The translations under genes were made by a program, and so were the position numbers. Positions 20,944 through 34,395 of a stretch of DNA of 44,950 nucleotides are shown in pieces. Origin of the DNA: a virus. Taxonomy: Duplodnaviria > Caudoviricetes. Below the pieces are notes generated by a model. It saw nothing but the letters and a program-made list of their open reading frames with translations. It had not been told where the DNA came from and ran no database searches. The stretch covers positions 1 to 44,950 of IMG/VR virus record IMGVR_UViG_3300020388_000025; one strand, 5' to 3'. Each line of letters starts with the position of its first letter. The first letter of the stretch is position 1.

Positions 20944-21387
20944 ATGGCTTATAGCAAGGAAGTAACCGAAAGATTTTATGGGGTCTTAGATAACCCTAGT
21001 GAATTTTCTGTAGGAAGATTCGACCCCAAAGCTTCTAACGTTGCAACCGGAATGACGGGAGCTCCAGCATGTGGAGACGTCATGAAACTTCAACTAAAAC
21101 TAGATCCAATGGACGATGATAGAATAGTTGATGTTAAATTTAAAACTTATGGATGTGGTAGTGCTATAGCATCTTCTACTATGTTTGTTGAAATGTTAAC
21201 AGGCAAAACAATAGAAGAAGCTAAGCTGATTAAAGATAGAGATATTGCAGAAGCTTTGCAATTACCACCCATTAAGCTTCATTGTTCTGTATTAGCTGAA
21301 GATAGTATCAAAAAGGCTATAGAGGACTGGGAAGAGAAAACTCAATACAGAAAACACAATCAACTATATCCTGAAAATGGAATGTAG
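20944..21387 (+). CDS. iscU: Fe-S cluster scaffold protein IscU
   Basis: GAPACGDVMKLQ, FKTYGCGSAIASS, LPPIKLHCSVLAED. Confidence 0.96.
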   Translation: MAYSKEVTERFYGVLDNPSEFSVGRFDPKASNVATGMTGAPACGDVMKLQLKLDPMDDDRIVDVKFKTYGCGSAIASSTMFVEMLTGKTIEEAKLIKDRDIAEALQLPPIKLHCSVLAEDSIKKAIEDWEEKTQYRKHNQLYPENGM

Positions 21388-21389
21388 TA

Positions 21390-21758
21390 ATGATAGAACT
21401 TACAGATGAAGCGATTAAAAAACTTCTTCAAAAGAAAACCAAAGAACAATTTAGTTATATACGGCTTGGGATTACAGGCGGAGGTTGCGCTGGTTTTGAG
21501 TATGTTTTTGATGCTGTTAATGTTAAGTCTGATTCCGATGTTCTCTTAGACTTCGGTAAATTAAAATTTATAGTCGATAAAGTTTCCATACCTTATCTTA
21601 ATGGTATGACTTTAGACTTTCAAAAGCAAGGATTGAACGAAATCTTTGTATTCCAAAACCCAAAAGAAACTTCATCATGTGGATGTGGTGTATCTATTAA
21701 CTTTGATCTTAATAAAGTAGAAGAAGATTCTTCTAAAATATTTGCAATAGAAGTTTAA
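21390..21758 (+). CDS. iscA: A-type Fe-S carrier (IscA/HesB family)
   Basis: GGGCAGFEY, NPKETSSCGCGVS. Confidence 0.92.
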   Translation: MIELTDEAIKKLLQKKTKEQFSYIRLGITGGGCAGFEYVFDAVNVKSDSDVLLDFGKLKFIVDKVSIPYLNGMTLDFQKQGLNEIFVFQNPKETSSCGCGVSINFDLNKVEEDSSKIFAIEV

Positions 21759-21763
21759 TTTAT

Positions 21764-21771
21764 TATAAATA
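21764..21771 (+). promoter_or_regulatory. T4-type late promoter heading the curli-like operon
   Basis: Intergenic TATAAATA, 9 nt before the ATG. Confidence 0.78.
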
Positions 21772-21780
21772 GATTATATT

Positions 21781-22077
21781 ATGGAAGAAGTATTTCAATT
21801 AATAAGCGATGTGGGTTTGCCAATAGCGGGAGCTTTGGTGATGGGCATCTTTATATTCATCATTATTAAACAAATAATGGAGGGTGTAGTAGATGATATC
21901 AAAACCTTAACTATGTTCTGTGAATCATTAGAAAATCGAGCAAGAACAATGAGCAATGAAATGATTAAAATTGATATGCTTGTAAGTAGTGCATTAGAGC
22001 TAAGACCTGATATCGATAGAGTAGCAAGAGCTGAAAATTTTATCGAAGATGGTAAGCTTGATGTGAGGCGAGATTAA
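21781..22077 (+). CDS. Single-TM coiled-coil membrane protein
   Basis: LISDVGLPIAGALVMGIFIFIII then heptads. Confidence 0.75.
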   Translation: MEEVFQLISDVGLPIAGALVMGIFIFIIIKQIMEGVVDDIKTLTMFCESLENRARTMSNEMIKIDMLVSSALELRPDIDRVARAENFIEDGKLDVRRD

Positions 22078-22367
22078 TGGAACCAATCGAAGAGTTAAGT
22101 TCAATAGGAACTATTATACAAGACTACGGATTTCCAGCTGTTATGGTTGTAGGTCTAGGGTATTTTGTTTATTTTGTATGGAAGTTTATCAGTGATGAAA
22201 TTGAACCTGCGACTGAAAAGATGCATTTCCAATTAATTAAGGTCATAGACCAAATGAGAATGTTGGACCAAGATTTGATTAGACTCCAACAAAAAGTAAA
22301 TGTAGTTTTAGAATATAAAGAGAATGAAAAGAAGAAGAAGAATAACTCAGGAGGAGATAATGGATAG
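22077..22367 (+). CDS. Single-TM coiled-coil membrane protein, paralog-like to the previous gene
   Basis: IIQDYGFPAVMVVGLGYFVYFVW...LDQDLIRLQQKVN. Confidence 0.75.
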   Translation: MEPIEELSSIGTIIQDYGFPAVMVVGLGYFVYFVWKFISDEIEPATEKMHFQLIKVIDQMRMLDQDLIRLQQKVNVVLEYKENEKKKKNNSGGDNG

Positions 22368-22860
22368 AGTAGAGATCACGGTGCTTAGTGGTATTTTTCT
22401 AATATCTGTATTGGCAATCAGTAATCCAATGCAAGCTGATGAAGTGTTTAAATTTAAAAACCCATCGTTTAGTGGATCCGGAACAGGAGCTCACTATCTA
22501 ACAATAGAAAACCAAGAGCATAGTAGAAAGAAAGCAATTAAAGATGCTATGGAAGCTGCACGTAAAGCAGCAGAAAGAGCAGAAGATAATACTACGATGG
22601 CAAAGTTTATAAGAAACCTAGAGAGTAGAATATATGCTCAGTTATCAAAACAATTAGTTGAATCAATGTTTAGTAATGATAACTCTGTAAGGTTTGGCTC
22701 TTTTGTATTAGAAGGTAATACTGTTACATATGAAGTTATTACAAATGAGGATGGTACAGAATATATACAAATGACTATTGTTGCAGAAGATGGAACAACT
22801 ACTGTTATTGAAATTCCAATTGGATCAGGCAACTTTGGTCAAGACCCGGACGTTGGCTGA
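22360..22860 (+). CDS. csgF: Curli assembly protein CsgF-like
   Basis: Signal peptide, FKFKNPSFSG, FIRNLESRIYAQLSKQL, GTTTVIEIP. Start revised to 22360 (GGAGG RBS). Confidence 0.85.
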   Translation: MDRVEITVLSGIFLISVLAISNPMQADEVFKFKNPSFSGSGTGAHYLTIENQEHSRKKAIKDAMEAARKAAERAEDNTTMAKFIRNLESRIYAQLSKQLVESMFSNDNSVRFGSFVLEGNTVTYEVITNEDGTEYIQMTIVAEDGTTTVIEIPIGSGNFGQDPDVG

Positions 22861-23828
22861 TGGAAGGAGTATTAGCATTATTATTAATACTAGGATTACT
22901 GAACGAATCAGAAACTCCTGTATGGTCAGAAACTCCACAAGAGTGTAAAGAAATAGAATACGAAGAAGTAGTAGATGCATTAACAGCATCAAAAAATTCT
23001 GTTAAGTATATACTAGAGAATACACAAAGAAAACATCATATATGTGTCGAAGAACCAGAAGCTATTAGATTACCATCATATATTGATTTATTAAACTTAC
23101 CAGCTGCTGATGAAATGCCTGTCGTAGCAGTATATGGTTTCTTAGATAAAACAGGTCAAAGAAAAGAGAGAGATGGTATAGCAGATTTCTCTACAGCCAC
23201 AACTCAAGGTGGTACAGAATTATTAATTGATGCTCTAAAAACAGCTGCCGATGGTAAATGGTTTAGAGTTGTAGAAAGACAAGGCATTGATAATCTAGTA
23301 CGAGAAAGACAGATTATACGAAGTGCAAGAATTGAATTTGCGGGCGACGGTGGTCCGCAACCATTAAATCCACTCCTATTTGCAGGAATGATAATAGAAG
23401 GTGGAATTATTGGCTACGATACTAATATAAAAACTGGTGGTCGGGGCGCACGACTATTAGGTATTGGTAAAAGTAAACAATATTCGCAAGATGTTGTTAC
23501 CGTATCTGTCAGAGCTGTTTCAGTTCTAACAGGTGAAGTATTATTGAATGTCCAAGCTAAGAAAACTATTCTTGGTTACGGTGGAAGTGGTGATATTTTT
23601 CGATTCGTCGATCAAAGTACCACTCTTGTAGAGTATGAGGACGGTGTGGGTAATAATGAGTCAGTGACATATGCAACACGAACAGCTATTGAAGCCGCCG
23701 TGTTGGAACTAGTATACCAGGGTCACGATAGAGGATTCTGGGTAATTAAAGATGGGCATCGCCATCCACATCTCATAGGTGGGGTTAACGATAAACATCA
23801 ATTAGAAGAGGTAAACGAAAATGAATAA
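22860..23828 (+). CDS. csgG: Curli secretion channel CsgG-like
   Basis: VAVYGFLDKTGQRK, FSTATTQG, WFRVVERQGIDNLVRERQIIR, IIEGGIIGYDTN. Confidence 0.93.
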   Translation: MEGVLALLLILGLLNESETPVWSETPQECKEIEYEEVVDALTASKNSVKYILENTQRKHHICVEEPEAIRLPSYIDLLNLPAADEMPVVAVYGFLDKTGQRKERDGIADFSTATTQGGTELLIDALKTAADGKWFRVVERQGIDNLVRERQIIRSARIEFAGDGGPQPLNPLLFAGMIIEGGIIGYDTNIKTGGRGARLLGIGKSKQYSQDVVTVSVRAVSVLTGEVLLNVQAKKTILGYGGSGDIFRFVDQSTTLVEYEDGVGNNESVTYATRTAIEAAVLELVYQGHDRGFWVIKDGHRHPHLIGGVNDKHQLEEVNENE

Positions 23829-24558
23829 ACTTTTAAGTATAGCGATGCTATTGTCGACATCCTTTGTTTTCGCTGCAGCCACTGATGATAACGAAATAAA
23901 AATCACACAAACTGGTGATACACTTAAATTATATGTAGATCAAATCGGTTTTGGAAACAAAATTGGTGGAAACGACTTTTCAAGTGGATCAGGAACTGTA
24001 ATGTTAATTACAGGTACAACACTAGAGTTTGATTTGGATTTCGCTGGTAACCAAAACGTTTTATTTGGACCTGTTACAGCTGATAGCTCAACCTATAAGC
24101 TTGATTTTACAGGTGATTCAAATGAAATAGATTGGAGTGTCGGAGCTTCAGGCAGTGCAGATGATACAGATATAAACTTTGACGTTACAGGTGATTCAAA
24201 CACTTTTGATATCGATCAAGGTTCTGCAGCAAGTGCAGAAAGATTAAATGCAGATTTAATCTTAATTGGTAGTTCAAATGTCTTTGATATCGACTGGGAA
24301 TCAGACGATAACATTTGGGATTTTGAAATTACTGGTGATAGTAACAATATTAATACGTTGCAAAACGACGGCGAACAAAACCTAGAATTCACTTTAACAG
24401 GTGATTCAGCAGATGTTGATATAAATCAAATATCTGGTACTTGTGCTACAGGTGCAAGTAATGCATGTTCTTCACCGAATGCAAATATTGTTTTAACTGT
24501 TACATCAGACAATGCGATTATTCAACTTAATCAAAAAGACGCAGCTAACGACAGCTAG
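23821..24558 (+). CDS. Secreted curlin-like beta-repeat protein
   Basis: Signal peptide; repeated (F/V/I)TGDSN and QxGxxN strand-turn units; very acidic. Confidence 0.7.
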   Translation: MNKLLSIAMLLSTSFVFAAATDDNEIKITQTGDTLKLYVDQIGFGNKIGGNDFSSGSGTVMLITGTTLEFDLDFAGNQNVLFGPVTADSSTYKLDFTGDSNEIDWSVGASGSADDTDINFDVTGDSNTFDIDQGSAASAERLNADLILIGSSNVFDIDWESDDNIWDFEITGDSNNINTLQNDGEQNLEFTLTGDSADVDINQISGTCATGASNACSSPNANIVLTVTSDNAIIQLNQKDAANDS

Positions 24559-25618
24559 TCTTTTACTCATCAGTGGGTTCGGTTATGCTGAACCCATTGG
24601 CGATATACGAGAATCCATTGGTTATGGTGGAATTACAAGAGATAAAGAAAACTATAGCCATGATGTCGGATTTGAAATTCAATTAAACGATACAGCTGAA
24701 ACTGCAAATGGCAGAATGCTAATTGAATTTTTAGATCAAGCAGAACTCCAACTCAAAGAACATTCAAGAGTCTTAATAGATACAGTCTATTATGACCCAG
24801 ACCCTAGCCTATCAAAAATGACTATGAGAATGGTCAGTGGTACAGCAAGATTTGCATCAGGTAAAAAGGGTTTAATTAATAAATCAAACATAGAAATATC
24901 AACACCAACCGCTACAATTGCTGTAAGGGGCACGGACTTCACCACAACAATAGATGAAATAGGACGAAGCCTTGTTATTTTATTACCCGACGATCAAGGT
25001 AAACCATCAGGTATTATTGAAGTATCAAACTCAGGTGGAACAGTAATATTAGATGAAGCATATGCAGCAACAATGATTGCATCATACGATAAATCACCAA
25101 CATCATCTACAGTTATAAATGGTATTACACCAGCTTTAATTGATAACATGTTTATTGTCAATCCACCAGCAGAAGTAAAACAACAGATAGAAGAAGAATT
25201 AGCAGACGAACAAAACGAAGATCAAGGTTTATTAGATATCGACTTTTTAGAATTTAATGAACTAGAAGAAGATGAATTAGCTGAAGATGAACTTGACGAT
25301 TTTAATGAATTAGATATTGATGAACTTGATGTTGAGTTTCTTATAGATGTTTTAGATATAGTTGACTCAGGCGACTTATTTGATACACTTGGTGAGTTTG
25401 ATCTTAAAGGTGCAAGAAGAGGTTTAAACGATGAATCACAATATAATGTTTTTCTAAGAGATGGAGATTTAGTTCTATACCGTAATGTAAACGGACTTAT
25501 AGAAATAACAATCGGAGCTGCTGGAAGTTTTACATTAGAAACAGATACACCAACTTGGCAAGGTTTAATTATAGGAAATGATGGCGATGACATAGACATT
25601 CGCATAAAACAATTATAA
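24512..25618 (+). CDS. FecR-domain exported protein with acidic linker
   Basis: Signal peptide; ETANGRMLIEFLD...ISTPTATIAVRGTDF...IEVSNSGG; D/E-rich repeats. Confidence 0.85.
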   Translation: MRLFNLIKKTQLTTASLLLISGFGYAEPIGDIRESIGYGGITRDKENYSHDVGFEIQLNDTAETANGRMLIEFLDQAELQLKEHSRVLIDTVYYDPDPSLSKMTMRMVSGTARFASGKKGLINKSNIEISTPTATIAVRGTDFTTTIDEIGRSLVILLPDDQGKPSGIIEVSNSGGTVILDEAYAATMIASYDKSPTSSTVINGITPALIDNMFIVNPPAEVKQQIEEELADEQNEDQGLLDIDFLEFNELEEDELAEDELDDFNELDIDELDVEFLIDVLDIVDSGDLFDTLGEFDLKGARRGLNDESQYNVFLRDGDLVLYRNVNGLIEITIGAAGSFTLETDTPTWQGLIIGNDGDDIDIRIKQL

Positions 25619-25621
25619 ATA
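25614..25621 (+). promoter_or_regulatory. T4-type late promoter
   Basis: TATAAATA overlapping the FecR stop codon, 5 nt before the next ATG. Confidence 0.7.
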
Positions 25622-25626
25622 AAGAT

Positions 25627-26295
25627 ATGAAAAAAATAATAATTATGTTAATGGTAATAGGAGTTTGTTTACTTGCCTTTGCTGCAAGTGCAGGTCCAAC
25701 AGACGATAATCATATTCATGTAGAACAAGTTGAAGGTGGAGATGATTTAAATTTAAACATAACACAAATAGGTTATGGTAATAATGTTAACTTTTCTTTT
25801 GCTCACGCAAGTAACACATTTGATTTAACACAAAATGGTACAGGTAATTCTATATCGTGGGTATCATATTGGGGTTCAGGTAAAAGCTGGGGCGGTGATG
25901 TTGACGGCACAGGCAATGACGAAACAGTATTACAATATGATGGTGCAACTTATGGTAGACATATATTAGGAAACAATAATACAGTAAATGTTTATCAACA
26001 TGGCTCACATACATTTAATTTAGATATACATGCTGATGATGTAGATATTGAATCATGGCAAGAAGGCGGAGGTTCTCATTATTCTCATGCATATTTTTAT
26101 GGTACAGCTGATGGCTCAACAGTTGATCTCATGCAGAAAGGAAGTGCAAATCATAACTCTCAAATAAGATTACAAGGTACAGAACCTACAACATTAAATC
26201 TATTACAACAAGGTAGTACGAATATGAGTTATTCTATTACGAATAATTGTTTTACTGTCGGTGGTTGTACAGTCAATGTCTCACAAGGCAATTAA
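25627..26295 (+). CDS. Second secreted curlin-like protein
   Basis: Signal peptide; ITQIGYGNN, LTQNGTGNS, VYQHG, LMQKG, LLQQG repeats; terminal Cys pair as in 23821. Confidence 0.75.
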   Translation: MKKIIIMLMVIGVCLLAFAASAGPTDDNHIHVEQVEGGDDLNLNITQIGYGNNVNFSFAHASNTFDLTQNGTGNSISWVSYWGSGKSWGGDVDGTGNDETVLQYDGATYGRHILGNNNTVNVYQHGSHTFNLDIHADDVDIESWQEGGGSHYSHAYFYGTADGSTVDLMQKGSANHNSQIRLQGTEPTTLNLLQQGSTNMSYSITNNCFTVGGCTVNVSQGN

Positions 26296-26374
26296 TGAAT
26301 AATTATAGTAGATTTATTCGATATCGTTATGGCTATCCAAGAAGATTTACAGGATTAATTATTGACATATACGT

Positions 26375-28216
26375 ATGAAATATCTTACTTCAATCTGGTC
26401 TACGCTATTACTACTCACAGGTTTAATACTTTTAAGAGTATATGACCCTATTGGATTAGTAGAACAAATTCGTTTAAACACATTTGATCAGTACATTAAA
26501 TCATTACCACAAGAGAAATCAAACGATATTGTTATCGTAAATATTGGTGAGAACTCTCTTGGATCCATGGGTCAATTCCCTTGGCCAAGACAAGAATATG
26601 CACAAATGATTTCTGATCTAAGAGAAGTCAATGCAGGTTATATAGGGTTTACAATTATGTACCCAGAACCTGATAGATTTGGTGGTGATAAAATCTTCTC
26701 GCAATATATGCAAGACAATGGGATTATCTTATCACAAGATGTAGATTCAAACGGAAGGGCAGACAGTGCACCGTATGTCGGTTATGCAACCTTTGGTACA
26801 TCAGAACCTTTAGACTTTATATACAAATATGATGGTTTAGTTGCCAATATTAATATATTAGAACATGAAGCATGGGGTATTGGATTAATAAATGCTGCAC
26901 CTGAAGTAGATAATATCACAAGAAGAATACCACTCATATCAAATGTAAAAGATCAACTCTATCCATCATTTGCTTTAGAAATGACTAGACTTGCATTTGA
27001 CAATCTATCATACACAATTAAATCAAACGAAGCTGGAATAGAAAGTATTGTTGTGAGGCCATTTGAAATACCTACAGATAGTGATGGTTCTATATGGCTA
27101 AAGTGGAATACAGAATTTGAGGAAATAGAATACGAAAGACTAATGCCTGGTATTGATAACTTAGAAGGCAAGACAATTATTATAGGTGTATCAGCAAAAG
27201 GATTAGCTAATCAGATACCTACTCCTGGTGGTCTGATGTATCCAGCCCAGCTTCAAGCCGCAGCTCTGCAAACAATTCTTTCAGACAATCCGATTTCTCG
27301 TCCTGTTTGGGCCGATTCAATAGAAATTTTGGTAAGTTTATTTCTTGCTCTTGTATTGATTTTACTGGTATACCACGCACCGATCTGGGTATCTGGTCTT
27401 GGCTTCGTCGTTCTTTGTGTTGGACAAGCCGGAGTGACTTTTTATATCTGGAATAAATTTTATATACTCCTCGATCTTAGTTATTCTCTAATATTATATA
27501 TAATTTCTTTTGCTTCAACGAGTTTTAATAACTTCTATAAACAATTTGTATTGAGACAACAGATAAAGAAACAGTTTGAAACATATCTGGATCCAAGACA
27601 GGTAGCACTATTACAAAAAGACCCAAGTAGATTAAAGCTTGGTGGTGAAAGAAAAGAAATGACATTTATGTTTATGGACATCGTAGGGTTCACTCCGATA
27701 TCAGAACACTATAAAAATAAAAATGACCCAGAAGGGTTAGTAGATATTATAAATACTTATTTAGACCGTATGACCAAAATTATTTTAAACAATGGTGGTA
27801 CAATAGACAAATACATGGGCGATTGTATCATGGCATTTTGGAACGCTCCTTTGGACGAACCAGATCATGCAGATAAAGCAATACAAACATCCATTGAAAT
27901 AGAGAGAGCAGCAAATGAACTTATTAAAGAACTTGAAGAAAAGGGTTTACCTCGTATTGATGTTGGGATTGGTATCAATTCCGGTACTTGCATCGTCGGA
28001 AACATGGGATCAGAAACTAGATTTGACTATTCCGTCATTGGAGATGCCGTCAATCTCGCAGCTAGACTCGAAGGACAAACTCGCAATTACGATGGGGTTC
28101 GAGTGTTGTTGGGACAAGAAACTTATAAACTCTGTAAAGCAAGAAAATTCACGGAAGTTGATAGGATTCTCGTTAAAGGAAAAAAAGAAAAGACTACGAT
28201 TTATACCAATCACTAA
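26375..28216 (+). CDS. CHASE2-domain class III adenylate cyclase
   Basis: TM, CHASE2 (GQFPWPR, YPEPDRFGGD), 3 TM, then FMDIVGFT, IDKYMGDCIMAFWNAP, RFDYSVIGDAVNLAARLE. Confidence 0.95.
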   Translation: MKYLTSIWSTLLLLTGLILLRVYDPIGLVEQIRLNTFDQYIKSLPQEKSNDIVIVNIGENSLGSMGQFPWPRQEYAQMISDLREVNAGYIGFTIMYPEPDRFGGDKIFSQYMQDNGIILSQDVDSNGRADSAPYVGYATFGTSEPLDFIYKYDGLVANINILEHEAWGIGLINAAPEVDNITRRIPLISNVKDQLYPSFALEMTRLAFDNLSYTIKSNEAGIESIVVRPFEIPTDSDGSIWLKWNTEFEEIEYERLMPGIDNLEGKTIIIGVSAKGLANQIPTPGGLMYPAQLQAAALQTILSDNPISRPVWADSIEILVSLFLALVLILLVYHAPIWVSGLGFVVLCVGQAGVTFYIWNKFYILLDLSYSLILYIISFASTSFNNFYKQFVLRQQIKKQFETYLDPRQVALLQKDPSRLKLGGERKEMTFMFMDIVGFTPISEHYKNKNDPEGLVDIINTYLDRMTKIILNNGGTIDKYMGDCIMAFWNAPLDEPDHADKAIQTSIEIERAANELIKELEEKGLPRIDVGIGINSGTCIVGNMGSETRFDYSVIGDAVNLAARLEGQTRNYDGVRVLLGQETYKLCKARKFTEVDRILVKGKKEKTTIYTNH

Positions 28217-28576: not shown

Positions 28577-28659
28577 TGTTACAGTTGTGTGACAACTGTG
28601 TAACAATTGTGTGAACTCTTCCAAAAACCGTTTACACAGCTGCCAAAACATGGTATAAT
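28577..28659 (+). promoter_or_regulatory. Strong early promoter with four 11-bp phased upstream repeats
   Basis: TGTTACA/TGTGACA/TGTAACA/TGTGAAC at 28577, 28588, 28599, 28610; TTTACA(28631)-17-TATAAT(28654). Confidence 0.85.
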
Positions 28660-28688
28660 ATAACTATAAATTTGATAAGGAGAAAAGA

Positions 28689-29024
28689 ATGATTTATAAC
28701 ATAATAGTAAAAAACAAGATTTCAAAGGAATCTAAGTATAGCGCATATAGCGTGGATAAAGTAATTAACTTTTTTAAAGATGATCTAGGATATTGTCTTA
28801 ACCCGGTCCAAGGTTCATTTAACAAATTTTGGATGTCAGGTAAATACATCAAAGATGAAGTTGGTGGAAGTTATAAATCAGGATTTATAGAAGGTTCTAA
28901 GTATTACAAATTGGTTGTAAACGATAGAGACTTTGGAATAGAATCAGGTGGTGATTTAAATGGATGGCAAATGGCCGGAATCATCAAACAAGAAATGCTT
29001 GAAAAATTAAGGAGTGCAAAATAA
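28689..29024 (+). CDS. Early hypothetical protein
   Basis: TAAGGAG RBS directly after the early promoter. Confidence 0.75.
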   Translation: MIYNIIVKNKISKESKYSAYSVDKVINFFKDDLGYCLNPVQGSFNKFWMSGKYIKDEVGGSYKSGFIEGSKYYKLVVNDRDFGIESGGDLNGWQMAGIIKQEMLEKLRSAK

Positions 29025-29269: not shown

Positions 29270-29578
29270 ACAGGAATCGAGGAAGAGCTGTAGTTGGTTG
29301 GTTGTTGTGAAGCTCTACGAAAATCCCGGTCCTAACTGTTAAAGTCAATTAAGACGTGGCATATAGTTGTGAGGTTAGGATATAAAGGAAACAATGAAGT
29401 AACTGAAATTCTAGGAGTGGTTGGGAAGTTATGGAAAACGAGAGACCTTATGGTGGCAAGCTATCCACCTAGATAAAATTCAGGTAAGGCCTGACTTAGA
29501 AGGACACGCTGTAAAGAATAGGGATAACACCCTAGAGTTGAACAACTATAAACTCAATGTGACTGGCGAGTCACAAAG
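29270..29578 (+). ncRNA. Candidate structured non-coding RNA (~310 nt), family not recognised
   Basis: Longest ORF-free stretch in the window, visibly GC-richer, with many local and long-range complementary segments (see findings). Confidence 0.65.
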
Positions 29579-29581
29579 TTA

Positions 29582-29642
29582 TGTGACAATTGTGTGACAA
29601 TTTAAAAAAACCGTTGACAATTGCAGAAATACGTGATACTAT
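29582..29642 (+). promoter_or_regulatory. Second early promoter with 11-bp phased repeats
   Basis: TGTGACA at 29582 and 29593; TTGACA(29614)-17-TACTAT(29637) with TG extension; same architecture as 28577-28659. Confidence 0.85.
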
Positions 29643-29676
29643 AGACATATAAATTAATAATGATAAGGAGAAAAAA

Positions 29677-29793
29677 ATGAGTGATTATTATAACAATGAC
29701 GACCTAGCAGATCAACTAGATGACGTCTTAAAAAAATTAGCCGTAATGGAAAATAAGCTTGATCAGCTTTTAAAAGATAAGGAGTCTAAGTAA
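29677..29793 (+). CDS. 38-aa coiled-coil early peptide, not in the ORF track
   Basis: TAAGGAG RBS; MSDYYNNDDLADQLDDVLKKLAVMENKLDQLLKDKESK; TAATG coupling. Confidence 0.7.
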   Translation: MSDYYNNDDLADQLDDVLKKLAVMENKLDQLLKDKESK

Positions 29794-30239: not shown

Positions 30240-30537
30240 AACAGATTCTTATGTAATGACTGCTTATACTGCTTCTGCTGGTGATATGTTAGAAATTAAC
30301 ACAATCAGAAATACAGTTAAGTCAATAAACAAACTAATTAAACGAGCTGAAAGAGACCACAATAACCATCCAATGAATGACGACCTTGCAATCTTTCCTA
30401 GATATCGTGTTAATGTTAAAGGTAGGTATGGAAGAAACAATCCAAACTATTGTCCTCATAGAGGAAAGTCTGGATCAGTACCTTTAGAACATGCCGAAAG
30501 AGTGGATGTTTATATTCATAGGAGTAACAGATGGTAA
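30232..30537 (+). CDS. Early hypothetical protein
   Basis: Start revised to MDRTDSY (GGAGG RBS) from 30100. Confidence 0.7.
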   Translation: MDRTDSYVMTAYTASAGDMLEINTIRNTVKSINKLIKRAERDHNNHPMNDDLAIFPRYRVNVKGRYGRNNPNYCPHRGKSGSVPLEHAERVDVYIHRSNRW

Positions 30538-30701
30538 TGCACTTTGAACACATTGCAACTCGTATACCAACAAATGTAAGAGTTGACATTTGGAGTTCTA
30601 TATGTTATAATATAGGATTGAAAGATAAAGCTATTAATAGAGTTATGGCTTTTTATAAATTAGAAGAAACAGATTATTTTTACGAAGGAGTAACAAAATG
30701 A
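30537..30701 (+). CDS. Possible 54-aa protein containing an internal promoter
   Basis: TAATG and ATGA overlaps fill the gap exactly. Confidence 0.5.
   Translation: MHFEHIATRIPTNVRVDIWSSICYNIGLKDKAINRVMAFYKLEETDYFYEGVTK
30583..30611 (+). promoter_or_regulatory. Sigma70-type promoter
   Basis: TTGACA-17-TATAAT with TG extension. Confidence 0.8.
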
Positions 30702-31517: not shown

Positions 31518-31546
31518 TTGACAATACAATTCAATTGTGTTATAAT
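31518..31546 (+). promoter_or_regulatory. Sigma70-type promoter with extended -10
   Basis: TTGACA-17-TATAAT preceded by TGTGT. Confidence 0.88.
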
Positions 31547-31554
31547 ATAATATT

Positions 31555-31911
31555 ATGGGAATGACAAATTTTTACATGGGCTCACTAAGGTATTCACCTT
31601 GTGGCAGAAAGCGAAAAAATCATTTAGCTAATCCAGCTAAAAAGAAAATGGTTGCATTTAAGAAAGCAATTATAGAACAAACTCAGCTTGATATTATGCG
31701 AGCAGAGCAAGCAAAACAATACAAATCAGTTATGGAAGAAGCTATTAAAGATGGTACATGGTTAAGTAAGTCTGGTCATTGTAATAAGAAAGAAAATCCC
31801 ATGTACACAGGAACACTAGTAAAAGGTATTGCAACGATGCACAAATCAAATGCGGTACCTGTAATTAGTCAGCAAGAAGCTGAAGACATTGCAAAAATGA
31901 GGAGAGGTTAA
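31555..31911 (+). CDS. Conserved hypothetical protein
   Basis: YTGTLVKGIATMHKSNAVPV motif seen in T4-like phages. Confidence 0.75.
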   Translation: MGMTNFYMGSLRYSPCGRKRKNHLANPAKKKMVAFKKAIIEQTQLDIMRAEQAKQYKSVMEEAIKDGTWLSKSGHCNKKENPMYTGTLVKGIATMHKSNAVPVISQQEAEDIAKMRRG

Positions 31912-32036
31912 TGAAGTGGTTTATAACATTAATATTTGACTTCTGGTCTAAAATTTTTGAATGGTCTTTTAAGCTATTAGGATTGTTTATGATCTTATAT
32001 ACAATTGTATACTTGTGGACAGGCGGAAACATATGA
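31911..32036 (+). CDS. Possible 41-aa membrane peptide
   Basis: TAATG coupling, GAGG RBS, hydrophobic. Confidence 0.45.
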   Translation: MKWFITLIFDFWSKIFEWSFKLLGLFMILYTIVYLWTGGNI

Positions 32037-32080
32037 AAGGATATTGTTTTCACAACAGTTAAATTTAAGGTAGGGTTATT

Positions 32081-32287
32081 ATGATAACAGAAGAAGGAAG
32101 TAAAAATATGATATCAAGTTTTCAACGAGAAACTTTGACATCAGATTTATTTGAAATGAATGGAGTATATGGTTGCGATTATTATAAAGATGGAGTATTA
32201 TTAGCAACAGAAGTATATGCAGGTAAAAGCATACATTATGCTCAAAATGCTGCGGAGAATTACGTAGATGGAATTAAACAAGTTTAA
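32081..32287 (+). CDS. Hypothetical protein
   Basis: KSIHYAQNAAENYVDG motif. Confidence 0.65.
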   Translation: MITEEGSKNMISSFQRETLTSDLFEMNGVYGCDYYKDGVLLATEVYAGKSIHYAQNAAENYVDGIKQV

Positions 32288-32288
32288 C

Positions 32289-32335
32289 AGGTTGACCGGG
32301 GTTTCTAACTCCTTATCATTAGCTTCGGTTAACCT
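32289..32335 (+). ncRNA. Intergenic RNA hairpin with an anti-Shine-Dalgarno loop
   Basis: 15-bp stem with 4 G-U pairs; 17-nt loop TCTAACTCCTTATCATT. Confidence 0.55.
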
Positions 32336-32353
32336 AATTTATATATATTTACT

Positions 32354-33499
32354 ATGAGAAAAAGAACAAAGAAAAGAGGACCATCGTTAGAGGATCAATA
32401 CTTAGGTGCAGAACCTAGTTATGGACCACACAATCCTGTAGGCGAAGGCGACGAAAGAGACAGAGAATATCACAGAGGTGCTAATTGGTTCTATTACTAT
32501 GAGAATAGAAAGAAAGCACATACTGCTATTTTATATTATGCCAAACATGATCTTAAATTAACAGCAAAAGAAATAGTTAATTTAAATAAAAATCCTGTAT
32601 GGAAAATTAATCAATCAAATTATAAACCAGTTGCAATGTTTCAAGCAGGCTGGGTTGGAGCTCCTTTAGATTTAGATGCAGTGAATACACGATTGCGTGA
32701 TCTAGTGAAAGAAGGTGAGAAGATCAAACTTGAAAAACTACAAGAGAGCCCACCAACGCCTGTGATTTCACCACAAGAAAGAACACGAAAGAAAGTGGTA
32801 GAAACTATATGGAGTGATTGGGATTCTACTATTGTAGAAGGTTGGTTCACTGAGAACTTTACACAAAAGTTTTCAGCATATAATAGATTTAAAGGTCATG
32901 GATTAAAAAGCAATTCAATTAATATATTTAAAAATATGTTAGAAGTAGAATACAATAATATTAAAGATGCGTATGATAAAACATGCGAACAATGTATAGA
33001 AGCGTATTCACATATTACTAAAGGTAATAAGAAAAAGATATTAAATCAATTTGAGGAAGTGTTTGCTGATCTGGAGAAACTCAGAACATCATTTAAAGCA
33101 ACACGAACACCAAGAGCATTGAAACCAAAAACATCAGATAAGCAGGTTGAAAGATTACAATACATGAAAGAAAGTATTGATGATAAACTTGTTTCAATTA
33201 ATCCTGTACTTATTCCAGGTAGTCATAAGCTTTATGTTTATAATACAAAGCAAAGAAGATTATTTGAATACACAACAGATTCCATTAATGGATTCGAAGT
33301 TGCTGGTACAACAATTAAAAACTTTGATGCAGAAAGTAGAGTTACACTTCTACGTAAACCAGAAGAGATATTACCATCGGTTTTAAATAAAACTGAAAAG
33401 CAAATAGAAAAAATGTGGAGTAATATTACAACAAAAATAGGTAAACCAACAGGAAGAATAAACGCTGACTGTATTTTACTAAGGGTATTTAAAAGATAA
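32354..33499 (+). CDS. Conserved T4-like hypothetical protein upstream of gp33
   Basis: SINPVLIPG...LYVYNTKQRRL...GTTIKNFD...LRKPEE...GRINADCILLRV. Confidence 0.75.
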   Translation: MRKRTKKRGPSLEDQYLGAEPSYGPHNPVGEGDERDREYHRGANWFYYYENRKKAHTAILYYAKHDLKLTAKEIVNLNKNPVWKINQSNYKPVAMFQAGWVGAPLDLDAVNTRLRDLVKEGEKIKLEKLQESPPTPVISPQERTRKKVVETIWSDWDSTIVEGWFTENFTQKFSAYNRFKGHGLKSNSINIFKNMLEVEYNNIKDAYDKTCEQCIEAYSHITKGNKKKILNQFEEVFADLEKLRTSFKATRTPRALKPKTSDKQVERLQYMKESIDDKLVSINPVLIPGSHKLYVYNTKQRRLFEYTTDSINGFEVAGTTIKNFDAESRVTLLRKPEEILPSVLNKTEKQIEKMWSNITTKIGKPTGRINADCILLRVFKR

Positions 33500-33741: not shown

Positions 33742-34331
33742 AAGACCCATTTGAGTCTTACAAATTATATAACTCACTCAAGCTACACTTTGAAACAGAT
33801 AGCTATGATGCGATAAAATATAATTTTAAAACATCGGTAAAACCAACTTCTTTTTTTAAAAGAAAAGATAAATACTTTTTTGCGAAGTTAGCTAACACAT
33901 ACGATAATCTATTAGATTTCTATGTAGCTAATTTTAAACATGACGTTAAGTATGTCGGTGATATGCTAAACGAACATGGTGAGAGATATTATCGTGACCA
34001 TAAGAAAGTATGTGAAAGTATTACATACACTTTTGAAAACGATATAAATAGATTATACGAAAGTAATTCTGATTTTAATGCTTTACTAGAAGCAGAAGAT
34101 AATGAACATCCTTTCGTTATAAAGTATTGGCTTCAAGATGAAATACATTTAGAAACTGTAGTAATTCTTGATTCCATTACGGGGTTCGTAGAACGTGAGA
34201 ATAAGAAGATATCAGAAACAATTATTTGGCCTGATATCTATCGTAAGATTATGAAATACAAACCTTTCGTAAAGTTTGATAAAACAAAATGTGTAAATAT
34301 TTTGAAAAAGACCTTTACAAAGACACAATAA
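33738..34331 (+). CDS. gp59: Helicase loader gp59
   Basis: YNSLKLHF...YDAIKY...KRKDKYFFAKL, IHLETVVILD, KYKPF. Confidence 0.92.
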   Translation: MKDPFESYKLYNSLKLHFETDSYDAIKYNFKTSVKPTSFFKRKDKYFFAKLANTYDNLLDFYVANFKHDVKYVGDMLNEHGERYYRDHKKVCESITYTFENDINRLYESNSDFNALLEAEDNEHPFVIKYWLQDEIHLETVVILDSITGFVERENKKISETIIWPDIYRKIMKYKPFVKFDKTKCVNILKKTFTKTQ

Positions 34332-34342
34332 TGTGTTATAAT
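34314..34342 (+). promoter_or_regulatory. Sigma70-type promoter for gp32
   Basis: TTTACA-17-TATAAT preceded by TGTGT. Confidence 0.85.
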
Positions 34343-34395
34343 ATAGATTATATAATGTATAAAGTGGATAATTCAGTAATATATGGAGAAATAAA

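Follow-up and report, generated by a model that had tools for sequence, protein, structure and literature searches.

A conserved RNA hairpin of marine T4-like phages with a loop complementary to early-gene leaders

Introduction

Marine T4-like phages appear to use one host-type promoter for both their early and their replication genes, and this shared promoter leaves early-gene turn-off as a question. The question arises at a small hairpin in an uncultured marine T4-like myophage: TGATAAGGA(G/T) leaders that follow one class of host-type promoters are complementary to the hairpin loop. Is this hairpin a trans-acting antisense RNA carried by the transcript of the promoter at 31518 and directed against early ribosome-binding sites, as an earlier note on this DNA had proposed? 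The stretch analysed, here called the window, is a 45-kb fragment (44,950 nucleotides, 33% GC) that carries NrdAB, gp33, gp59, gp32, and tail and baseplate genes. In the search for a close isolate, megablast gave no match, the phrog_11903 protein was at most 38% identical, and the best 30 listed matches of gp59 were at most 42% identical.

Fold and position of the hairpin

The hairpin (32289-32335, + strand) consists of a 15-bp stem with four G-U pairs, as had been described for the + strand RNA and can be read directly from the structure, and a 17-nt open loop (32304-32320, +). The + strand fold has an energy of -19.2 kcal/mol (z -4.66), which was equalled by 0 of 200 shuffles, and the - strand fold is weaker (-11.7, z -2.25). 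The loop core ACUCCUUAUCA at 32308-32318 is antisense to TGATAAGGAGT. The reported match of CTCCTTATCATTA (32309-32321) to 29658-29670 is an exact complement, but not all of it is loop: 12 of the 13 bases are open, and the 3' stem begins with base 32321. The two 10-nt complements reported at 28673-28682 and 29776-29785 are both present. A 12-nt complement to any of 69 leaders was reached by 30 of 5000 shuffled loops (0.6%), and by 136 of 5000 (2.7%) when the CTCCT core was kept. Within the window genome alone, the loop-leader match is only moderately beyond chance; it is decisive because the hairpin is conserved in relatives.

The hairpin lies within the 3' UTR of a three-gene operon and starts 1 nt past the last of three small ORFs (118, 41, and 68 aa; 31555-32287, +; phrog_27048). 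A sigma70-type promoter at 31518-31546 (+; 12/12, extended -10), with a predicted start site that gives a near-leaderless mRNA, is likely the source of the hairpin-bearing transcript. Downstream lies the phrog_11903 gene (32354-33499, +), which precedes gp33-gp59-gp32 and served as the anchor for finding relatives. The structure prediction for its protein is of low confidence (pLDDT 60). A promoter-like site at 32292-32319 was discarded because it falls within the variable stem. Rfam covariance models, including those of c4 and cuckoo-type RNAs, gave no match over 32289-32335 at E up to 5, and the hairpin was undescribed in the literature searched, which lay mostly outside subscription journals. 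The motif was absent from seven supplementary files of PMC10690425; two further large supplements may hold the family.

Conservation in relatives and stem covariation

Loci were gathered by way of the phrog_11903 gene downstream of the hairpin and the 118-aa ORF upstream of it, and those with more than 40% identity and at least 400 nt of upstream DNA were counted (n = 195, a redundant set). Loop conservation, which had been set as a check on the antisense reading, is nearly complete: the motif occurs upstream of the phrog_11903 gene in 194 of the 195 loci (43-100% amino acid identity), and the remaining locus, L204, has a variant loop and hairpin that are still matched by the covariance model. 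These loci contain 64 distinct hairpins, with less than 90% nucleotide identity to each other. A weak hairpin call in L244 proved false and was removed before later counts. The loop core ACUCCUU(A/U)U is fixed across relatives, while the stems are rewritten with compensatory pairs. Among 62 aligned hairpins, A27-T33 (ACTCCTT) and T35 are invariant and the stems diverge; nine of the 11 core positions do not vary, and A34, C36, and A37 of the ACTCCTTATCA block are each conserved at more than 90%. The mean unpaired probability of the core is 0.90-0.99 in the 64 hairpins, and the loops range from 12 to 29 nt. The hairpin is thus real, an uncatalogued and strongly conserved phage RNA element.

The stem covaries as + strand RNA. 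In 25 sequences, picked as one subgroup alignable by sequence, 99.4% of cells are paired, both-side changes occur in 11 of 14 pairs, and the main helix is paired throughout, 35 of its cells being G-U/U-G. This pairing was matched by 0 of 500 shuffles, and slid controls pair 33-43%. In the full 62-row MAFFT alignment the stems are mis-registered, with only 7 consensus pairs. Two strand tests on the 64 hairpins are crude and weak: the + energy is lower in 37 of 64 unconstrained folds and in 50 of 64 with the loop held open, and G-U counts are 113/977 versus 107/985. The opposite reading, raised in the earlier note as one that would overturn the antisense proposal, takes the element for the RBS of a gene on the minus strand. 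The - strand does read TGATAAGGAGT, followed in 13 of 64 hairpins by a start codon with a frame of 25-67 aa, but the frame lengths are inconsistent, the wobble pairs favour the + fold, and the window has no minus-strand frame behind the element. This reading is therefore hardly credible.

Covariance model R1 gave one match each in the window and in three contigs of 98-128 kb. It gave none in G157, G158, Cr30, phiM12, or DLP6; since the same model missed seven known clade hairpins, this limit on the range of the hairpin is soft. The hairpin was absent from fourteen distant loci reached solely via the 118-aa ORF, and a phrog_11903 profile search of genome contigs found no relative. A loop pattern scan over 120 of about 520 stretches showed clean long stems at the hairpin locus. 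The same scan showed three GC-rich folds at other sites (L022, L097/L123, L125).

In 63 of the 64 hairpins, the loop core lies 10-70 nt past the end of an ORF, and the distance downstream to the next gene ranges between about 33 and 340 nt; the hairpin therefore belongs with the message upstream of it. In 45 of 53 distinct hairpins, the closest promoter on the upstream side is of the near-leaderless class, and a late promoter lies within 300 nt upstream in none of the 53. The element might instead be a terminator, stabilise the 3' end, or act as a cis switch that masks the SD of the next gene; its loop would then have no distant partner. Besides the preceding stop codon (63 of 64), a T-rich tail is found in 21 of 64 hairpins, a new promoter within 60 nt in 27 of 64, and TAAGGAG just downstream in 10 of 64. 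However, 43 of 64, the window included, have no downstream GGAG, and most hairpins are without a U-tract. The short loop and the U-tract directly after the stem that mark intrinsic terminators are lacking, and a 12-29 nt loop with an invariant core is untypical of terminators. Such local roles would also leave the covariation with early leaders unexplained, and we consider them improbable.

Early leaders and promoter classes

The predicted targets in the window all lie on the + strand. Early promoter 2 and its leader (29614-29676) contain the site 29658-29670, which is predicted to pair with 12 loop nucleotides at -16.4 kcal/mol with an opening cost of 1.4. Early promoter 1 and its leader (28631-28688) contain TGATAAGGAG (28673-28682; 10 nt, -15.0 kcal/mol, opening cost 0.7). 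A further predicted target of 10 nt (29776-29785; -15.4 kcal/mol) is the RBS of the 29793 gene, within the end of a 38-aa ORF, and the RBS of the 29024 gene (29008-29015) is a weaker one (8 nt, -11.1 kcal/mol). In relatives, the longest loop complements are nearly always at start codons 1.3-4 kb upstream of the hairpin, often the first behind a sigma70-type promoter, and have the consensus TGATAAGGAGT.

Among 62 sigma70-type promoter matches in the window and G154-G156, 27 are near-leaderless, 9 are followed by GATAAGG-tagged leaders, 14 by another SD, 11 by no ORF, and 1 by a long leader without SD. That many middle genes are leaderless, as had been suggested, agrees with these four genomes, in which an ATG lies at most 12 nt from the -10 box at the 27 near-leaderless promoters. 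For late genes the suggestion holds in part: short leaders occur in 20 of 64 TATAAATA-led ORFs, but 23 of 64 have an SD. The GATAAGG tag was found in 0 of the 64 late-promoter leaders. Near-leaderless starts include DNA polymerase (gp43), NrdA, and UvsY, and tagged genes include small unknowns, a CobS-like ATPase, and a peptidase. The early and near-leaderless promoter classes have one common consensus. When all starts are ranked by duplex energy with the loop, a non-early start comes first in 4 of 4 genomes, which speaks against the antisense reading; early or tagged leaders are within the top nine in each of the four.

Two features of the early block are recorded here in their own right. TGTGACAA-type repeats lie directly upstream of both early promoters (28579-28615 and 29558-29600) and are possibly operator or recombination sites. 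A perfect sigma70-type promoter (30583-30611), conserved in G154, lies inside a 56-aa ORF (30531-30701) and would serve the 30698 gene.

Pairing of loops with their own leaders

Pairing of loops with the leaders of their own phage was compared in 38 distinct loci, taken from the 55 in which an SD-led promoter could be detected. With main effects removed, own loop-leader pairs had an advantage of 1.43 kcal/mol over non-own pairs. When each protein cluster was represented by a single pick, the own-pair effect persisted with 12 clusters (median p 0.001), and with 9 and 6 clusters the median p was 0.012 and 0.008 (worst 0.11); clustering lessens but does not remove shared ancestry in this test. 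When only unpaired loop bases were used, the residual was -1.65 kcal/mol (median p 0.0005) and was robust to omitting any cluster. Internal RBSs, used as a control, showed no own-pair effect (p 0.67-0.74). On average, a loop pairs over 10.7 nt with its own leaders versus 9.7 nt with those of relatives.

Individual loci show both matched changes and exceptions. The loop TCATTA meets the leader TAATGA in the window's group, TCATCAA meets TTGATGA in L004/L267, and in L159/L178 the loop-leader register is shifted 3'. Column-wise covariation is weak, with 33 matches versus 30.7 expected at one site and 7 versus 9.4 at another. Counterexamples are L204, with a changed loop and an unchanged leader, and L157, L264, and L142, in which loop and leader mismatch. 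Hence the co-change of loop and early RBSs that the earlier note had asked for is seen in duplex energies, which track the own leaders, but hardly in single columns, and the counterexamples count against it.

Transcript data

Four RNA runs from one study contain 72-93% of the region's words, and Logan contigs bridge the hairpin in runs X1, X2, and X3. A 110-nt contig from run X5, which belongs to another study, spans the hairpin; Logan contigs are unstranded and give no RNA ends, levels, or proof of a small RNA. The hairpin is uncovered in the small-share runs X6, X7, and X9. RNA contigs are unbroken across the early block to about 32500-32950, which does not imply a single transcript. Contig depth drops past about 32500 in X2 and X3, both from one study, and contigs of this kind cannot show ends or levels.

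This continuity bears on a cis alternative, in which early transcripts read through and stop at the hairpin, and the loop meets the 5' leader of its own message 2.5-3.6 kb away, as in icaR. The strongest targets are in the same-strand block immediately upstream, no convincing + strand terminator separates them from the hairpin, and both partners may share an mRNA there. However, in G155 and G156 tagged leaders with 8-10 nt loop complements also occur at 37-61 kb from the hairpin, where pairing on one mRNA is implausible, and the nearest promoter feeding the hairpin yields an untagged message in the 45 of 53 cases given above. The distant leaders favour action in trans, and long-range cis pairing is unlikely.

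The host side

The IscU-like gene of the window is closest to SAR86 (67-68%), and seven of its eight best matches, from 4 of 64 collection parts, are titled SAR86. The host is thus likely SAR86, judging from this one gene. Of 365 genes in 400 kb of one SAR86 genome, 60 (16%) have SD-like leaders and 24 carry GGAG. Loop matches of at least 9 nt occur at 2 of the 365 genes versus 2 of 1000 random sites. In the window, SD-like leaders precede 9 of 10 genes of the early block and 28 of the 59 genes elsewhere.

These counts make it very unlikely that the loop is a general anti-SD decoy for host shut-off that spares leaderless phage mRNAs, the wider option of the earlier note. The core could pair with any GGAG, and SD-like leaders do occur outside the early block, but the presumed host is SD-poor, with loop matches at background. 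Moreover, the short SD leaders of gp55 and gp45 pair over only 4 nt with the loop. Leaders of bS21 genes pair over 4-7 nt.

A further alternative is that the loop mimics the 16S 3' tail and binds a protein or the ribosome (phage bS21, S1, or RegA), the leader match following from SD/anti-SD resemblance. CUCCUUA fits the tail of many SAR86 16S genes, bS21 is encoded in all three long clade contigs, and bS21 is described as contacting the anti-SD in the accessible part of PMC9723584. However, the invariant A before CUCC and the 3' UCA fit the phage leaders and not the rRNA tail, and a preference for own leaders is unexpected from rRNA mimicry. None of 54 SAR86-order 16S end readings (some genomes were read twice, and more than half were chosen from the CTCCTA type) continues TTATCA, so that the 3' UCA of the loop is absent there and the loop is not a mere rRNA copy. 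We regard such mimicry as quite unlikely.

Trans pairing in this host may have to do without a chaperone: Hfq was not found in 31 SAR86-order genomes, in a search whose controls were detected in 5 of 14. Chaperone-free pairing usually relies on an open seed that is held by a stem.

Comparison with known systems

The hairpin has the conserved structure with an exposed seed that characterises trans-acting antisense sRNAs in general. The c4 antisense RNA of phages P1 and P7 is likewise a phage-encoded trans RNA with loop complements around an RBS of its own phage, and a complement of this kind is displayed in the loop here. As described in the accessible part of PMC12197685, c4 targets the antirepressor (ant) mRNA in temperate phages. 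In contrast, our element is a single hairpin of a T4-like phage, has no Rfam match, and matches a class of early leaders that precede small unknowns, the CobS-like ATPase, and the peptidase and not an antirepressor. Cuckoo RNAs of Alphaproteobacteria share a fixed C/U-rich loop motif with highly variable stems, but the available portion of PMC4615179 presents them as bacterial, with two to four adjacent hairpins and CCUCCUCCC loops; the phage element is one hairpin with a ACUCCUUAUCA loop that matches the phage's own leaders. The hairpin would therefore work like c4 RNA and is built like cuckoo RNAs, and it is a member of neither.

The icaR 3' UTR of Staphylococcus aureus also holds a motif complementary to an SD region, but in the part of PMC3868564 available to us the pairing is inside one mRNA, whereas leaders matched here lie as far as 61 kb away, presumably on other transcripts. 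T4 RegB offers a likeness of function that we infer from the accessible text of PMC3014915: early mRNAs are inactivated at GGAG Shine-Dalgarno sequences in the shift from early to later expression. RegB is a protein endoribonuclease and the hairpin is an RNA. A RegB search of four incomplete contigs gave no match, and this search gave no match anywhere.

A similar pattern of tags is found in cluster K mycobacteriophages, whose start-associated sequences extend an SD tag beyond 16S pairing before non-structural genes (PMC3203893, as available in part). In four genomes, the same portion reports a single copy in opposite orientation that is not linked to a gene, and its authors leave room for an RNA or a protein as the partner. 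Both systems thus combine many tags with a single reverse copy. They differ in tag, phage family, and host. The accessible part of PMC3203893 mentions neither a hairpin nor antisense action, whereas the lone reverse copy in our phages forms the loop of a hairpin whose stem covaries.

Proposed mechanism

We think it probable, on balance, that the loop pairs in trans with tagged early leaders, blocks ribosome loading, and lowers early translation. The hairpin would persist as the stable 3' end of the 31518 message or as a processed small RNA, and its stem-held loop may pair without Hfq. It would cover the tagged SD of early mRNAs in trans and block 30S loading, with predicted loop-leader hybrids of -15 to -16 kcal/mol and small opening costs, and would so repress early translation. 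The near-leaderless replication genes and the weak-SD regulators gp55 and gp45 would escape. The hairpin would thus be an RNA counterpart of the T4 nuclease RegB. It may act after the early burst, although the promoters do not point to a delay in its synthesis: both classes have the same consensus, and none of the 53 hairpins has a late promoter within 300 nt upstream. Counting against this account, RegA is already encoded in two of the three long clade contigs. As for the original proposal of an antisense RNA on the 31518 transcript, loop conservation, stem covariation, and own-leader preference agree with it, and per-column covariation is weak. The comparative case for antisense control of early translation is good, as far as sequences can make it.

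A bolder account, possible though we lean slightly against it, is that a single Hfq-independent RNA is the early-to-middle switch of a lytic phage, by which the tagged class is cancelled, leaderless replication genes escape, and a superinfecting relative is silenced. Accumulated RNA would silence such a relative because loops pair almost equally with relatives' leaders. If this is true, a strong tagged SD lets early genes seize ribosomes in an SD-poor host, and the replication genes, leaderless under the same sigma70 promoter, are spared. The same logic could account for the start-associated sequences of cluster K mycobacteriophages and provides a testable model for these unexplained elements. 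The clade is abundant and likely infects SAR86, and the parts are compact, with a hairpin of about 50 nt and a tag of 10 nt.

Other observations

The window carries an auxiliary gene cluster at 20944-28216 with IscU-/IscA-like Fe-S genes, curli CsgF/CsgG, a curlin repeat, FecR, and a CHASE2-adenylate cyclase. The genes for bS21 in the long clade contigs (L471:7709-7969, L479:4317-4586, L486:10971-11237) have their own sigma70-type promoter and an SD leader, in phages that probably infect an SD-poor host.

The early block of the window contains another conserved, structured region (29270-29560, +), which is non-coding and about 290 nt long. It is present in 15 of 61 relatives with enough upstream DNA, has both-side changes in 17 of 47 predicted pairs in 11 sequences, and gave no Rfam match. 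In L142 and L157 a tRNA comes directly after it.

In G155 and G156, a promoter that diverges from gp55 has no ORF behind it and gives a predicted long 5' hairpin (L478:1-260, -, and L487:15480-15800, +); its transcript is possibly a further non-coding RNA. Finally, the leader of the gp32 promoter (34314-34395 of the window) is conserved in relatives and is likely a gp32 autoregulatory site; candidate gp32 leader RNAs are reported in the accessible part of PMC10690425.
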